From Minisyncoccia bacterium (GTDB taxonomy: Bacteria > Patescibacteriota > Minisyncoccia > Phycocordibacterales > SBAW01): a DNA stretch of 58,777 nucleotides. The stretch covers positions 1 through 58,777 of the forward strand of contig JBEKSG010000006.1 in NCBI GenBank assembly GCA_049997855.1, written 5' to 3'. Shown here in pieces: positions 26,345 through 51,898 of the stretch. The position numbers and the translations under genes were made by a program. The stretch's first letter is position 1, and each line of letters begins with the position of its first letter. The notes below the pieces were generated by a model. It was given only the letters and a program-made list of their open reading frames with translations, did not search any database and was not told the DNA's origin.

Positions 26345-26599
26345 ATGAACACATTGCATATAAAAAAAGGAGACAGCGTTACGGTGCTCTCCGGTAACGA
26401 AAAAGGGAAGAGCGGTAAAGTGCTCAAGGTGTTCCCTAAGCTCAGTATGGTGCTCGTGGAAGGTGTCGGCATGCGCAAAAAGCATCAGCGGGGCCGCCGC
26501 GAGGGCCAAAGGGGCCAAATCATCGACAAGCTTTTTCCTATCCACGCGAGCAATGTTGTCCTCGCGCAAGCGAAGAAACCGAGTAAAAAGAAAAATTAA
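26345..26599 (+). CDS. rplX: 50S ribosomal protein L24
   Basis: 84-aa ORF; KKGDSVTVLSGNEKGKSGKV (KOW motif). Confidence 0.93.
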   Translation: MNTLHIKKGDSVTVLSGNEKGKSGKVLKVFPKLSMVLVEGVGMRKKHQRGRREGQRGQIIDKLFPIHASNVVLAQAKKPSKKKN

Positions 26600-26609
26600 T
26601 AGAAAGAAA

Positions 26610-26654
26610 GCCGCGCCAAAAGGACGATTGCACGGCATGATTTCGACAAAATCA
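26610..26654 (+). repeat. 45-nt two-hairpin leader element, copy 1 (upstream of rplE)
   Basis: gccgcgccaaaaggacgattgcacggcatgatttcgacaaaatca; near-identical copies at 33358 (+) and 37713 (-). Confidence 0.9.
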
Positions 26655-26660
26655 ACTACT

Positions 26661-27215
26661 ATGCCTAAATTAATTCAAGAACAACAGCAAACCGCGTTTG
26701 ACGCGCTCAAGGAACAGTTTAGGTGGACTAACCGCATGCAGGTGCCCAAGCTCCAAAAGGTGGTTATCTCCGTGGGCGTGGGCAAAATGGCCAAAGACAA
26801 AAACAAAGTCGAGTTGGTAGCCGACCGTTTGGCAAAAATCACCGGCCAAAAGCCGGCCGAGCGCGGCGCTAAAAAATCTATCGCTACCTACAAAACGCGC
26901 ATCGGCGACAGGGTGGGCTATCAAATTACGCTCCGCGGTAAGCGCATGCAAGATTTCCTCAATCGTTTGATACACATTGCTCTGCCTCGCACCAAAGATT
27001 TTAAGGGCATCTCACAGAGCGGCATCGATGCGATGGGCAACTACACGCTCGGTATTAAAGAGCACATCGTCTTCCCCGAGACAGCCGACGAGGACATCAA
27101 AGACGTCTTTGGCATGGCCGCAACGGTTGTCACATCAGCCAAAAACCCCAAAGAAGCAAAAGCATATCTAACTCACCTAGGCTTTCCGTTTAAGAAGGAC
27201 GTTTCGCAAAAATAA
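26661..27215 (+). CDS. rplE: 50S ribosomal protein L5
   Basis: The MPKLIQEQ... start is chosen by comparison with typical L5 N-termini; MQVPKLQKVVISVGVG block. The ORF is open from 26463. Confidence 0.93.
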   Translation: MPKLIQEQQQTAFDALKEQFRWTNRMQVPKLQKVVISVGVGKMAKDKNKVELVADRLAKITGQKPAERGAKKSIATYKTRIGDRVGYQITLRGKRMQDFLNRLIHIALPRTKDFKGISQSGIDAMGNYTLGIKEHIVFPETADEDIKDVFGMAATVVTSAKNPKEAKAYLTHLGFPFKKDVSQK

Positions 27216-27252
27216 CGTTATAGATTGGTATATAAGGACATTATTTCTTCCG

Positions 27253-27280
27253 TTGATTTTTTACATAGCGGGTATATCAT
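27253..27280 (+). promoter_or_regulatory. Sigma-70-like promoter (TTGATT-N16-TATCAT)
   Basis: Hexamers at 27253-27258 and 27275-27280, directly after the rplE stop. Confidence 0.45.
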
Positions 27281-27474
27281 AGCTAGGTACACCCGGAAAG
27301 GTTCGGAGAAGCTGCGCTCTTCCTGCAGTTTCTTTTGTAAGTCGCGGGAAAGGAAGGGGCAGTCGGGTCCGTGACTGCATCTGGCGTATTGAGCCTACTC
27401 TGTTACGGGTGTACCTCGGCTGTCCCTTCCTTTCTTACAAACTGGACCCGATAGGACCGGCATAGCGTACACCT
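27281..27474 (+). ncRNA. Highly structured leader/ncRNA of about 190 nt, unclassified (riboswitch-like)
   Basis: Long-range pairings: 27286-27295 with 27406-27415; 27333-27362 with 27420-27441; hairpins at 27307-27333 and 27359-27378. The 7-mer GTACACC recurs at 27467-27473, next to the ATG. Confidence 0.5.
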
Positions 27475-27843
27475 ATGTCTGCACCCCTTGAAACACCCCA
27501 ACGTAAATTAGTTTTTATAGCCCATCCCATCAGAGGGGATGTGGCTGGAAATATGACAAAAGTGTTTGCTATTTGCGAGCAGGTACACAAAGAAGGACAC
27601 ACCCCCATAGCACCCTACCTTATAGTACCTACGCATTCGAATGCCGGAGTAATTGAAAACCGGGAACTTGGAGTGTGGGCGAACCTTACTACTTTTGAGC
27701 GTGGCTATGTTGACGAACTTTGGCTCTATGGCGACGGAATTTCAGAAGGAATGAAAATAGAGGTGACTCTAGCGAAGAAATTAGGAATCCCCGTAGTTGC
27801 AAAATCGGAAGGGACAAAGAGGGACCTCGTAACATTAATCTAA
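27475..27843 (+). CDS. Small protein resembling the DUF4406 / nucleoside 2-deoxyribosyltransferase-like fold
   Basis: 122-aa ORF with the pattern VFIAHPIRGD...DELWLYGDGISEGMKIEVTLAKKLGIPV. Assigned from memory of the family pattern only. Confidence 0.45.
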   Translation: MSAPLETPQRKLVFIAHPIRGDVAGNMTKVFAICEQVHKEGHTPIAPYLIVPTHSNAGVIENRELGVWANLTTFERGYVDELWLYGDGISEGMKIEVTLAKKLGIPVVAKSEGTKRDLVTLI

Positions 27844-27896
27844 TTTTCAGCCACAATATTTATAATCGGTTTTAGATTGTAGAGGAGGAAACTTCG

Positions 27897-28103
27897 ATGC
27901 CCCTAGTTGTTGTTGCACAGAGCGCCCTTGCGGCCCTTATCGCAATGCTTAGTGTCAGGTCCTCGGTTCGAGCGACGGCGAGCCGCTATCTTGACCTGTT
28001 GTACGAAGAACCGCCCGCGGCGGACCCTGCATTCCTCAGAGAGGAATGCAGGAGGCAAGCCAGAGAGCACGCGAAAGAAAGAATGTGGTCACATATCATC
28101 TGA
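27897..28103 (+). CDS. Small hypothetical protein with hydrophobic N-terminus
   Basis: 68-aa ORF preceded by GAGGAGGA, 8 nt from the ATG, and followed by a terminator. Confidence 0.5.
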   Translation: MPLVVVAQSALAALIAMLSVRSSVRATASRYLDLLYEEPPAADPAFLREECRRQAREHAKERMWSHII

Positions 28104-28116
28104 CGCCCCACATTAT

Positions 28117-28150
28117 CCCGACTTTGCAAGTCGGGCTTTTCTTTTTCTTT
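28117..28150 (+). terminator. Rho-independent terminator
   Basis: 8-bp stem CCCGACTT/AAGTCGGG followed by CTTTTCTTTTTC. Confidence 0.7.
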
Positions 28151-28253
28151 CCTCCACTTTGCCGCCACTTCCTCAATTAAAGCCACGCAAACATTGCCCC
28201 GGGTTCGGAGCAGACAAAAAAATGAGGCAGTTGTTACTACCCCGCTCTCGTGT

Positions 28254-28529
28254 TTATAGCCGACAAGGCTGAATGGTGGTGAGGCTTATTCCGCCTCCCA
28301 TAGGCTCACTGCCCAGGTCCCGAACAGCATTTGCCCGAAGATTCTGGTGCAGCACCCGCTCCCTCATCTTCGCGTGCGCCTCACGACGCATCTGGTAAGA
28401 TCCTTCAAAGTGCAAAAATATAATTGAAGGTCCGACAGGCTCGCCTTCATCTTGTCCAACCCATGAGAAGTTCATGGGGCCTTTCCTCTGGTAGATGAGC
28501 AGAAGAAAAATCTTCATTAATCCAACCAT
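28254..28529 (-). CDS. Small hypothetical protein
   Basis: 91-aa ORF preceded on the minus strand by AAGGGAGGA, 8 nt from the ATG. Confidence 0.5.
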   Translation of the reverse strand: MVGLMKIFLLLIYQRKGPMNFSWVGQDEGEPVGPSIIFLHFEGSYQMRREAHAKMRERVLHQNLRANAVRDLGSEPMGGGISLTTIQPCRL

Positions 28530-28722
28530 TAAAGTGTCCTCCCTTACAGACCAACTTCCTATAGAAGTATGTGTCTGAAAGAGAGCCTTGTCAAGAAAAT
28601 GTAATGGTCGTACAGAGGTTTGACTTCTATGGACTAATCGCTTATATTGCTCCTAGCCCCACAGGGCTCCTTTTTTCTGAACGGTGCCGCTTAGTCGCAA
28701 GGCGAGGCATACCATCGGAATC

Positions 28723-28743
28723 ACCCTTCGACAGGCTCAGGGT
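28723..28743 (+). repeat. CCTTCGAC-N-GCTCAGG motif, copy 2
   Basis: aCCCTTCGACagGCTCAGGGt, 50 nt upstream of rpsN. Confidence 0.6.
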
Positions 28744-28793
28744 AAATAACCCGGCTTGATTGGAGGAAAAGGCTATACATCTCTATTCTATCT

Positions 28794-28979
28794 ATGGCAA
28801 AAAAGTCAACAGTTGCACGCTCAAATCGCGCACCCAAGTTTAAATCTCGGGTAGTTAATCGTTGCTTCCGCTGCGGGCGCAAGCGCGCCTTTATGCGCGA
28901 CTTCGGCATGTGCCGCGCCTGCTTTAGGGAGGCGGCCAACGAAGGATTGATTCCCGGTGTGAGAAAGTCCTCTTGGTAA
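28794..28979 (+). CDS. rpsN: 30S ribosomal protein S14, type Z (zinc-binding)
   Basis: 61-aa ORF; CxxC...CxxC (CFRCGR...CRAC), ending in KSSW. Confidence 0.95.
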
Positions 28980-41401: not shown

Positions 41402-41776
41402 TGGTGGAGATGGCGCGAGTTGAACGCGCGTGCAATGAAGTGTCGCAGAGAGCTTCTACCAGGTGTAGGACATTTTAATTTTCTTAGGCTCTTATGTTTA
41501 AAATGAGCAAAATCATTTTGAGCCGCAGATTGCAAGTTTCGGCAAATGGTCGAATCAACCCCACTCGCTATATCCTGTTTTATAACATCCTACATCCGCG
41601 ATCAGGCCACGCGGAGAAGATGCGAAGTCCTTAGGCTAATGCGTAAGAGACCTCGTTCGCCGAGAAATACGGCGATGCAACTGACTTTGCAGTTATGGTT
41701 ACCGGATTTTTAAGAAGGTCCGGACTTCTACCTCGCACTCGGTGCAAAGGCTTCATTGTCTAGGCCCGGCATCCCC
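41402..41776 (-). ncRNA. ssrA: Transfer-messenger RNA (tmRNA)
   Basis: The 5' GGGGAUG pairs with the 3' CAUCUCC-ACCA (G3:U pair). T-arm GCGCG-UUCAACU-CGCGC. Tag reading frame GCA AAG UCA GUU GCA UCG CCG UAU UUC UCG GCG AAC GAG GUC UCU UAC GCA UUA GCC UAA (..SYALA*). Lies 4 nt downstream of smpB. Confidence 0.9.
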
Positions 41777-46724: not shown

Positions 46725-46796
46725 GGGCGCGTAGCTCAGCGGTAGAGCAGCCGTCTTATACACGGCCGGTCCCTGGTTCGAGCCCAGGCGCGCCCA
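46725..46796 (+). tRNA. tRNA-Ile with anticodon UAU
   Basis: Perfect cloverleaf: acceptor GGGCGCG/CGCGCCC, D stem GCTC/GAGC, anticodon stem GCCGT/ACGGC with loop CTTATAC, T arm CCTGG-TTCGAGC-CCAGG. No encoded CCA. Confidence 0.85.
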
Positions 46797-50293: not shown

Positions 50294-51898
50294 CTAACGG
50301 AGAGGTGCCAGAGCGGTCGAATGGAGCAACCTGCTAAGTTGTTGTCCGGGAAACTGGACCGAGGGTTCGAATCCCTCCCTCTCCGCAATAGGTAGGACAG
50401 GACTAGATATATCAAAATTATTTTGGGCTTCACGCAGTGAAGCCCATTGTGGTTGAGCCACGCCGCGCGCTTCGCGCGTATGTAAGGAAAGGTTGGAGCC
50501 GAAGATTTTTTGGAGGGAGAGTTTTTTGGAGGGGAGGTCGTTCGATTTTTCCGTTTCATTAAGTAATGAAGCGTCCTTTATGAAATCTCGCAGAGGTTGG
50601 AGCCAAAGCGTAGCGTCATGCTCCAGTCGGACGATCTGCTCCTCGGCCGACTTGCGCTCAGACATGAGCGCACGCCTCCGCTCAAGATAGGTGTCGCGGT
50701 CTATGTCCTGCTCGGAATAGAGGTCAACGAAGCGGCTCATCTTGCCGTCCAGTTGAGCAATTTTGGTTCGCAAGTCTTGCACGGCAGTCATAGCAACGGA
50801 TTCGGCTTTCTGCTCGTCTTCGTTAGCCAAACGATATAACTCTTGCGTCCAGTCCGTAGGCATAACGTAGAGCGAAAGCAGGTCGGAGAGTTGAGCACTC
50901 AATACCTCCTCGCGGATATAGGACTGCGAACAGACACCGCGTTTCTTGGTACAGCGATAGTAGACGTAGCGGTGGACGTTCCCGTTCTTCTGATGCTTCG
51001 TGATAACTTCTCCGGTTATCATCCCGCCGCACTCGCCGCAACGCATGATGCCGCACAAGGGCTGCGGCTCGTTCTTGGGCTTATGGCGTTGTCTGCCGCG
51101 CAACTCTAAAACGTCCTGCACTCTGTCGAAAACAGCTTTTGAAATGAGCGGAGTATGCACGCCTTTGTATATCTCTCCGGCATACTCAAAATGGCCGTAG
51201 TAGAAGGAGTTGGTGAGCATCTTCTTGATGCTGTCTTTCTTTAGGGACTTGTCGCCACTGCTGCCGGACTTCTTGATCTGCTTGGTTCTGATACCACGCT
51301 CGTACAGAAAAGCCGATACATCTTCAAAACGGGATTTGTTCTCGGCGTACAGCTCGAAGGCTGCTCGTATAGCCGGAGCTTTGCGGCGATCAACTTCAAC
51401 ACGCTTGGTACGCGGATTATTTATGTAGCCCAACGGAGCAAGCCCCGGATACTCTCCGCGTCTCGCTTTCTCGCGTTGTCCTCGTTTCGTGTTCGCGCTC
51501 AAATCGCGGATGTACTGGTTCGCCATACCTAACTCAACAGACATCATCAATACGTTATCGGCAGGCAGAAAACTGCGGTCGTGGGTTTGTATGTGCTGAA
51601 TGACGCTCTGCTGCAAAAGCCAGCTTATCTGTCCACCGTCTACGGGATTGCGTGCGAGGCGGTCTATCTTCCAACACACAATGCCCTGCGCCTCTCCCGC
51701 GATGATGTGCCGGATCATTTCGTTGAAAACGGGACGGCCCGGCTTCTTGGCTGACTGTTTCTCCACGAACTCGGATACGATCTCCAAACCCTCGCGCTTG
51801 GCGAGGGAGCGCAACTCGGAAAGCTGCGCGTCTATCGAGAGGACTTGCTTGTCCTCGACATCGGTAGATTTGCGGGCGTAGAGGAAGTAGGTAGACAT
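50294..51898 (-). CDS. Large serine recombinase (resolvase/invertase N-domain, recombinase domain, zinc ribbon with coiled coil)
   Basis: YARKSTDVED (catalytic Ser), DRLARN, and CGECGG...YYRC motifs. The last about 80 codons run through IR1-L and then antisense through tRNA-Ser, so the true C-terminus is uncertain. Confidence 0.88.
   Translation of the reverse strand: MSTYFLYARKSTDVEDKQVLSIDAQLSELRSLAKREGLEIVSEFVEKQSAKKPGRPVFNEMIRHIIAGEAQGIVCWKIDRLARNPVDGGQISWLLQQSVIQHIQTHDRSFLPADNVLMMSVELGMANQYIRDLSANTKRGQREKARRGEYPGLAPLGYINNPRTKRVEVDRRKAPAIRAAFELYAENKSRFEDVSAFLYERGIRTKQIKKSGSSGDKSLKKDSIKKMLTNSFYYGHFEYAGEIYKGVHTPLISKAVFDRVQDVLELRGRQRHKPKNEPQPLCGIMRCGECGGMITGEVITKHQKNGNVHRYVYYRCTKKRGVCSQSYIREEVLSAQLSDLLSLYVMPTDWTQELYRLANEDEQKAESVAMTAVQDLRTKIAQLDGKMSRFVDLYSEQDIDRDTYLERRRALMSERKSAEEQIVRLEHDATLWLQPLRDFIKDASLLNETEKSNDLPSKKLSLQKIFGSNLSLHTREARGVAQPQWASLREAQNNFDISSPVLPIAEREGFEPSVQFPGQQLSRLLHSTALAPLR
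50299..50385 (+). tRNA. tRNA-Ser with anticodon GCU
   Basis: Type II tRNA: acceptor GGAGAGG/CCTCTCC, D arm CCA-GAGCGGTCGAA-TGG, anticodon loop CTGCTAA, long variable arm GTCC..GGAC, T arm GAGGG-TTCGAAT-CCCTC. Confidence 0.9.
50384..50540 (+). repeat. Inverted repeat IR1, left copy
   Basis: 157/157 match to the reverse complement of 54456-54612. Contains GGGCTTCAC-gca-GTGAAGCCC and CGCGCG-ctt-CGCGCG hairpins. Confidence 0.95.

Follow-up and report, generated by a model that had tools for sequence, protein, structure and literature searches.

What is the segment of almost 200 nt that separates a promoter from a small gene inserted in a ribosomal protein operon of a Minisyncoccia bacterium? The stretch analyzed here (58,777 nt; contig JBEKSG010000006.1 of assembly GCA_049997855.1; referred to as the window) holds an S10/spc-type ribosomal protein operon, in which an insert of ~1.6 kb separates rplE (26463-27215) from rpsN (28794-28979). 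An initial annotation, made from the letters of the sequence, had proposed a structured, riboswitch-like leader of ~190 nt (27281-27474 on the + strand; 194 nt, our reference interval) that ends at the start codon of the next gene. The observation was confirmed, and its interpretation was supported in part. The leader is conserved, and it is a genuine strand-specific RNA with interleaved pairings beyond chance. It is also a previously uncatalogued, narrowly distributed structured RNA and probably a new gene-control RNA.

Every sequence cited in the initial annotation was present in the window at the position given for it, as were its two local hairpins (27307-27333 and 27359-27378). A repeat finder recovered both of the long-range complementarities, i.e., A/A' as 27285-27298 with 27403-27416 (14 nt, 93% complementary; repeat I5) and B/B' as 27348-27365 with 27417-27434 (18 nt, 89% complementary; repeat I3). 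A stem scan of 27281-27474 detected two perfect Watson-Crick stems of 11 bp. In dinucleotide-preserving shuffles, any perfect stem of at least 10 bp occurred in 17 of 1,000 cases, and two stems of at least 9 bp occurred in 2 of 1,000. The folding z score of the + strand was -3.79, with none of 200 shuffles folding equally well, whereas that of the - strand was weaker (-1.89). Given this difference, and because ~10 of the 51 helix pairs are G-U, we regard the fold as specific to the + strand. A small open reading frame (ORF) within the leader was considered and rejected: there are stop codons, and the indels of 1 to 2 nt inside the conserved core exclude a coding function. No second copy of the leader was detected by nhmmer in the window or at any of the loci described below.

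The homologous leaders were collected by contig look-ups of protein homologues and by an exact 20-mer pattern scan (one scan each of a species-representative genome collection and the JGI metagenome collection). Nine distinct full-length leaders were obtained, namely, those of the window, L001 (identical to L012 and L015), L006, L007, L008, L011, L017, L018, and L022; a tenth copy (L005) is truncated. The set is small, its members are closely related, and all of the DNA comes from metagenome assemblies. The nine distinct copies are all located on Patescibacteria-type metagenome contigs; L011 belongs to a "Candidatus Adlerbacteria" metagenome-assembled genome (MAG) and L012 to a "Candidatus Saccharibacteria" MAG. 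Three leader variants in three contexts (L006, L008, and L022) occur in a single metagenome assembly (GCA_009712145.1). The 20-mer matches in a Rhizobium MAG (L010) and in L014 lay in unrelated sequence and were rejected as chance matches.

The 5' boundary of the leader is defined by a sigma-70-like promoter (Table 1). At each of the nine loci, both hexamers are found with the same spacing, in contrast to the 60 nt preceding the RNA, which diverge to pairwise identities of 49 to 70%. The distance from the -10 hexamer to GTACA is exactly 6 nt at all nine loci, and conservation of the RNA sequence begins exactly at GTACA. On the basis of this fixed spacing and the onset of conservation, we placed the transcript start at ~27287 (the G of GTACACCCG). 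From this predicted start, the leader extends to the ATG (27475) of a gene of the DUF7768 family. A terminator attenuator was rejected, because a terminator scan found no intrinsic terminator on the + strand within 27281-27474; the U-rich stretch UUCCUUUCUU serves as the 3' half of the B/B' helix.

Pairwise identity is 86 to 96% in the leader core, compared with 72 to 92% in the attached coding sequence (nucleotide level) and 66 to 74% in the flanking S8 and L6 genes (window, L006, and L007). Thus, the leader is more constrained than the adjacent ribosomal protein genes. It is also recurrently associated with one gene function: a DUF7768 gene follows eight of the nine full-length leaders, and at least four genomic contexts are represented. 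The ribosomal operon is one of these contexts, with the leader located between rplE (L5) and rpsN (S14) in the window and L006 and upstream of rpsN-rpsH-rplF in L007. The same promoter, leader, and gene are found in unrelated, nonribosomal contexts in L001, L008, and L022, and the similarity between loci starts at the -35 hexamer. The promoter, leader, and gene would form a portable unit. The ninth full copy, L011 (205-3822), retains the first ~8 codons of the DUF7768 gene, fused in frame to an ORF for a sensor histidine kinase of 665 aa, and its start-codon hairpin is duplicated. Because these codons are retained, the conserved unit extends through the start codon. The L011 leader is closely preceded by a tRNA gene and a serine-recombinase-like ORF and is followed by ORFs for IS5-like transposases. 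In the two nonribosomal contexts of L008 and L011, the tRNA genes (2520-2591 and 535-616, respectively) are ~150 to 170 nt upstream of the leader, a position that hints at integration hot spots as sites of the unit.

Three structural elements (hairpin P1, a long hairpin, and a start-codon hairpin) are shared by the RNAalifold consensus of the nine leaders and the nine single-sequence folds (Table 1; pair numbers below are alignment columns). In P1, the loop accommodates a 4-nt insertion of L017, and pair 24-56 varies (GC in four sequences, GU in three, and AU in one). The long hairpin, which has an energy of -52.6 kcal/mol by itself, varies at pairs 72-154 (AU, 3; GU, 3; GC, 2), 88-138 (GU, 4; AU, 4; UU, 1), 94-127 (UA, 5; UG, 4), and 81-145 (GU, 8; AU, 1). 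By our reading of the sequences, L022 has lost one A from B and one matching U from B'. In the L001-type variants, the weakening of a U-A pair to U.G accompanies a 2-bp extension of the upper helix. The B/B' pairing of the initial annotation corresponds to the lower helix of the long hairpin in all nine leaders, but the TTTTGTAAG/CTTACAAA extension is specific to the window and is not conserved. In the start-codon hairpin (-7.0 kcal/mol; pair probabilities, 0.83 to 0.95), the AUG (27475-27477) is fully paired and GUACACC (27467-27473) is in or beside the loop; pair 185-203 is GU in six sequences, AU in two, and GC in one. Across the three elements, the variable positions retain pairing except in a few cells, and an AU/GU/GC series is seen at three pairs. 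This retained pairing in nine leaders is suggestive support for the structure.

Table 1. Positions of the promoter, leader elements, and downstream gene in the window (MFE, minimum free energy)
Feature	Position	Strand	Basis and remarks
Sigma-70-like promoter (TTGATT, 16-nt spacer, TATCAT)	27253-27280	+	Consensus scan; first feature of the insert
Segment A (GUACACCCG)	27287-27295	+	Predicted 5' end of the transcript; complementary to A'
Hairpin P1 (12 bp; loop of 9 to 11 nt)	27305-27335	+	RNAalifold consensus; 99% of cells paired
Long hairpin	27347-27435	+	MFE structures of all nine leaders and RNAalifold consensus
Long hairpin, lower helix B/B'	27347-27367 with 27415-27435	+	Continues through GCAGUCGGG/CCUCGGCUGU
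Alternative hairpin P3 (GCAGUC/GACUGC)	27359-27378	+	-9.3 kcal/mol; excludes the middle of the long hairpin
Long hairpin, upper helix UCCGUGAC/GUUACGGG	27368-27375 with 27402-27409	+	
Long hairpin, conserved apical region with GGC/GCC mini-stem	27383-27395	+	
Segment A' (CGGGUGUACC)	27406-27415	+	Invariant in 10 sequences
Long hairpin, UGUAC bulge	27410-27414	+	
Variable linker joining the long and start-codon hairpins	27436-27458	+	Two GGAC motifs
Start-codon hairpin (GGCAUAG/CUAUGUC)	27459-27479	+	RNAalifold consensus; 95% of cells paired
DUF7768 gene (122 aa)	27475-27843	+	Pfam PF24963, E value of 6.4e-21

The linker is the least conserved part of the leader, and the 3' segment that contains it is 69 to 94% identical among the copies. 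A contact into this linker that had been proposed earlier, GGGTCC (27365-27370) with GGACCC (27444-27449), is complementary in the window, yet it was not upheld by the homologues: 78% of the cells are paired, one pair is broken in five of the nine sequences, and the contact is missing in L011 and L022. A closing helix in the RNAalifold output (GGUUC/GGACC) was likewise rejected, as it has one mismatch in each of four of the nine sequences.

The A/A' pairing requires a more guarded reading. Segment A is invariant except for a C-to-U change in L022 that retains a U-G wobble pair. The conserved core amounts to only 9 bp (GUACACCCG/CGGGUGUAC), for which all nine sequences have the pairing potential; the extra G-C pair of the window is positioned upstream of the predicted transcript start. 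As an isolated duplex, A/A' has an energy of -15.7 kcal/mol for the 9 bp and -21 kcal/mol for the 10 to 11 bp of the window. The potential for A/A' pairing is conserved, but the pairing is unproven because the bases are invariant. Within the long hairpin, A' contributes its CGGG to the upper helix and its UGUAC as the bulge; its sequence complements both A and GUACACC (27467-27473) as well. The earlier suggestion that A' has competing partners is thus borne out, these partners being A, the upper helix, and the A-like copy beside the AUG. Since A' lies within the upper helix, A/A' competes with that helix. Of the two options that the initial annotation had drawn from the order A-B-A'-B', i.e., a pseudoknot or alternative folds, the latter is favored over a static pseudoknot, with the qualification that the A/A' state would itself be pseudoknotted. 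Either arrangement can accommodate the lower B/B' helix. The P3 stem, which would form in the A/A' arrangement, is invariant; L022 breaks the closing pair of P3 (A.C) yet keeps the competing pair 81-145. The third copy of the A core, GTACACC, was confirmed 1 nt ahead of the ATG, and its potential to pair with A' exists in eight of the nine sequences.

The gene downstream had been described as DUF4406-like. Its match to DUF4406 falls below the threshold, and the family to which it belongs is DUF7768 (Table 1). The 122-aa protein also matches phrog_355, annotated as "nucleoside 2-deoxyribosyltransferase" (E value of 5e-17). An AlphaFold model (predicted local distance difference test score [pLDDT] of 81) has as its best PDB matches structures of nucleoside 2-deoxyribosyltransferase (NDT) and DNPH1, with template modeling (TM) scores of 0.5 to 0.63, so the product is predicted to have an NDT/DNPH1-like fold. 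The gene call of the collection (P0005, 96 aa) begins at the internal Met27 (27553). However, the N terminus from ATG 27475 is conserved among homologues and agrees with the Pfam domain boundary; we therefore favor the upstream ATG, the codon that is buried in the hairpin, as the true start. Kinase-like genes of the P-loop type neighbor DUF7768 genes at other loci (AAA_28, immediately upstream of a leaderless DUF7768 gene in L023 [1433-2348]; AAA_33/zeta-toxin-like, downstream of DUF7768 in L005 [1185-1706]), which fits a possible role of DUF7768 in nucleoside or nucleotide metabolism.

Regarding known RNAs, the statement that no class could be matched holds: an Rfam scan returned no family at the gathering threshold or with a meaningful E value for the leader. 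In the scan of the window with Rfam 15 (4227 covariance models) at gathering thresholds, nothing matched the leader. With E values of up to 10, the region 27100-28900 gave only hairpin noise, i.e., microRNA models at 15 to 20 bits versus thresholds of 80 to 100 and the DUF805b model on the wrong strand at 16.5 bits versus a threshold of 35.6. Seven homologous loci likewise yielded no Rfam family match. A full-text literature search found no published description of such a leader element. Nothing related was detected in phages or plasmids (blastn against both collections) or in the viral contigs of IMG/VR (three conserved-block pattern scans and a DUF7768 protein scan). We rejected 27 matches to a 17-mer hairpin pattern as local chance matches.

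How might such an RNA act? The reading that we find somewhat more probable than its negation is that the leader is a cis-acting regulatory RNA that works as a conformational switch. In a first state, A' would be held in the upper helix, with the long hairpin intact and the 5' end single stranded. In a second state, A' would pair with the 5'-terminal A and P3 would form, while the lower B/B' helix would persist, generating a pseudoknot. The RNA would toggle between the two states, with an effector biasing the choice. Because A and P3 are transcribed before A', the second state may be kinetically accessible, whereas the first would be favored thermodynamically. The output could be start-codon access, which would be expected to weigh decisively in an organism that lacks Shine-Dalgarno sites, or decay of the mRNA through exposure of its 5' end, or both. 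In this window, the native genes have A/U-rich start regions without Shine-Dalgarno motifs, while the DUF7768 start region is G+C-richer and paired. In a genome that lacks Shine-Dalgarno sites and has normally unstructured, A/U-rich starts, the paired AUG and the adjacent A-like copy are the likely read-out. The initial annotation had invoked pairing of A' with the translation-initiation region as the expression platform; the promoter, the hairpin that buries the AUG, and the absence of Shine-Dalgarno use, none of which it had recognized, likely change that logic.

The identity of the effector can be put forward only tentatively. A small molecule related to nucleoside or nucleobase salvage appears likelier than a protein, and an effector pocket, or else tertiary contacts, might be formed by the apical and bulge nucleotides, which are invariant and formally unpaired; nevertheless, we hold a small-molecule effector to be rather doubtful. 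The same reserve applies to the fuller proposal of an undescribed riboswitch class, confined to Patescibacteria, whose ligand would be a nucleobase, a (deoxy)nucleoside, or a related metabolite of salvage and which would control an NDT/DNPH1-like enzyme: a possibility to keep in mind rather than one to expect. Such a class would switch between the helix that closes the 5' end and the long hairpin and would be read out by start-codon accessibility without a Shine-Dalgarno site or by 5'-end-dependent mRNA decay. The closest functional parallel would be riboswitches that control translation and combine a pseudoknot with a closing helix at the 5' terminus, but the leader falls into no defined class. 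As in SAM-II, preQ1-II/III, and riboswitches with a 5'-terminal P1, the element is in the 5' untranslated region directly after the promoter and has a putative 5'-end helix, potential crossing or competing pairings, a paired initiation region, and one linked enzyme gene. Unlike these, it has no Rfam match and no Shine-Dalgarno sequence to sequester, and its linker is variable. With purine and 2'-deoxyguanosine riboswitches, it shares a gene of nucleoside metabolism (judging by the NDT/DNPH1-like fold), and given such a gene, a nucleobase or nucleoside effector would make biological sense. However, it has a long imperfect hairpin and a putative 5'-end helix instead of their three-way-junction aptamer.

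Several results weigh against a switch of this kind. In the nested ensemble, the probability of A/A' is 0, as nearest-neighbor energies favor the long hairpin, and forcing A/A' costs ~15 kcal/mol when B/B' cannot be counted. Neither A/A' nor P3 has informative variation, so the switch and the pseudoknot remain putative. The covariation check that had been recommended for homologues found pairings that are mostly compatible with the variation, but covariation was not significant: the observed measures were matched by 57 to 158 of 500 control shuffles, because there is too little variation among nine similar sequences. No conserved pairing couples the core to the start-codon hairpin across the variable linker. 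GTACAC also precedes the ATG in leaderless loci, so that its conservation need not reflect pairing with A', a caveat that applies to the third copy as a partner of A'. Finally, DUF7768 homologues at 89% amino acid identity (L002 to L004) and several others have no leader, which indicates that the leader is dispensable for the gene. In all, five further DUF7768 contexts (L002 to L004, L019 to L021, L023, L024, and L025) were leaderless and added no sequences to the set.

A rival reading, which we consider unlikely, is a leader that is constitutive or operated by a protein instead of sensing a metabolite. Such a leader could be an operator for an RNA-binding protein (e.g., its own gene product or a CsrA-like protein at the GGA motifs of the linker), or it could be a 5'-terminal stabilizer or translation-tuning element with the 5' end paired and the AUG in a hairpin. 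Nearly all bases on both helix strands are invariant, beyond what base pairing needs, and this fits sequence-specific protein recognition or overlapping constraints; both GGAC motifs of the linker recur in most copies, and the position of A at the 5' terminus fits protection of that end. On the other hand, the conserved unit encodes no RNA-binding protein (its partner ORFs have no family assignment), we know of no RNA-binding role for an NDT-like fold, and an apical region so large, invariant, and formally unpaired would more typically serve as a ligand pocket or make a tertiary contact. The 5'-terminal stem-loop stabilizers of the ompA and aprE leaders resemble the present leader in that the 5' terminus itself can become part of a helix, but here the partner of A is 110 nt away, inside a conserved hairpin of 90 nt, and the ~150 nt of near-invariant sequence is far beyond what stabilization needs. 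The location within a ribosomal operon (in the window, L006, and L007) recalls the ribosomal protein leaders of the spc operon; we rejected this assignment since the leader has its own promoter, is followed by a nonribosomal gene, and accompanies DUF7768 to the nonribosomal contexts of L001, L008, and L022.

It is less probable still that the element is an independent small RNA, acting in trans or catalytically, that is merely located upstream of the gene. The abrupt start of conservation at G27287, with upstream sequence free to vary, would suit such an RNA, as would its conservation above the level of ribosomal protein genes and its persistence ahead of an unrelated gene in L011. Nevertheless, the conserved promoter, with its constant spacing, accounts for the sharp 5' boundary, the RNA and the ORF have no terminator between them, and conservation runs on through the start-codon hairpin. 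In the catalytic version, a self-cleaving ribozyme would cut just 5' of GUACACCCG, and as read from the sequence, the crossing order A...B...P3...A'...B' resembles P1/P2 of the hepatitis delta virus (HDV) fold, including the strand order and the placement of A at the very start of the conserved RNA. An HDV-like ribozyme was rejected, however, because P4 and J4/2, which would supply the catalytic C, are missing and no HDV, CPEB3, drz, or other ribozyme model scores at E values of up to 10. In addition, A' and B' are separated by 4 nt (UCGG), an insert of 27 nt lies between P3 and A' where P3 should abut P1, and the first pair is G-C, not G.U. The interpretation that we regard as barely credible places the function at the DNA level: the GTACAC-type repeats would belong to a mobile cassette, as sites of recombination or of protein binding, and the RNA structure would be incidental. 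The motif is present three times, with both orientations represented, leaderless loci likewise have GTGTACAC ahead of the ATG, and the unit occurs in different genomic places, adjoining tRNA genes in L008 and L011 and, in L011, recombinase-like and IS5-like ORFs. Against this, the similarity begins at the promoter instead of a terminal repeat, flanking repeats, whether direct or inverted, were not detected, and there are no phage, plasmid, or viral-contig matches. Moreover, the ~10 G-U pairs in conserved helices, the clearly better fold on the + strand, and the retention of RNA pairing at variable positions are properties of an RNA. A cis-acting regulatory leader RNA remains our preferred reading.

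The rest of the insert has features of its own. Directly 3' of the DUF7768 gene, an ORF of 68 aa (27897-28103) has a strong Shine-Dalgarno motif (GGAGGA) 8 nt upstream; since native window genes lack such motifs, this suggests that the insert may be of foreign origin. A homologous small ORF also follows DUF7768 in L002 and L003, and a terminator-like hairpin is located at 28117-28135, 3' of the 68-aa ORF. The remaining insert (27844-28600) is homologous to pieces near DUF7768 in L001, L017, L009, and L002/L003, where they are interrupted by other genes; to judge from this patchwork, the insert of the window resembles a compact form of a larger, variable neighborhood. It includes a conserved 91-aa ORF on the minus strand (28254-28529) that matched nothing in Pfam, NCBIfam, PHROG, or PADLOC. 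A second conserved noncoding element (28620-28793) lies directly upstream of rpsN (S14). It contains a promoter-like sequence (TTGACT, 17-nt spacer, TATATT) followed by the hairpin AGCCCCACAGGGCU with a U-run, and a second hairpin at ~28688-28733. The segment 28643-28723 is 84% identical to L007 1376-1456, which is also immediately upstream of rpsN, and the two-sequence consensus fold has three compensatory pairs; there is no Rfam match. This element may be an S14 leader or attenuator. The window matches Rfam at gathering thresholds only for a transfer-messenger RNA (41402-41776, - strand; 87 bits) and tRNAs (46725-46796 and 50299-50385, both on the + strand).

Patescibacteria have tiny genomes with few known regulators and depend on nucleosides and nucleobases salvaged from hosts. 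To our knowledge, almost no regulatory RNAs have been characterized in this group. The impact of the present finding is limited by the narrow distribution of the leader (about nine distinct copies) and by the nonsignificant covariation. Within these limits, a leader that precedes a nucleoside-enzyme-like gene offers a testable handle on the regulation of salvage in Patescibacteria, as well as on the control of translation by a structured RNA without a Shine-Dalgarno site. If a ligand were found, it would indicate the substrate of the uncharacterized DUF7768 family.

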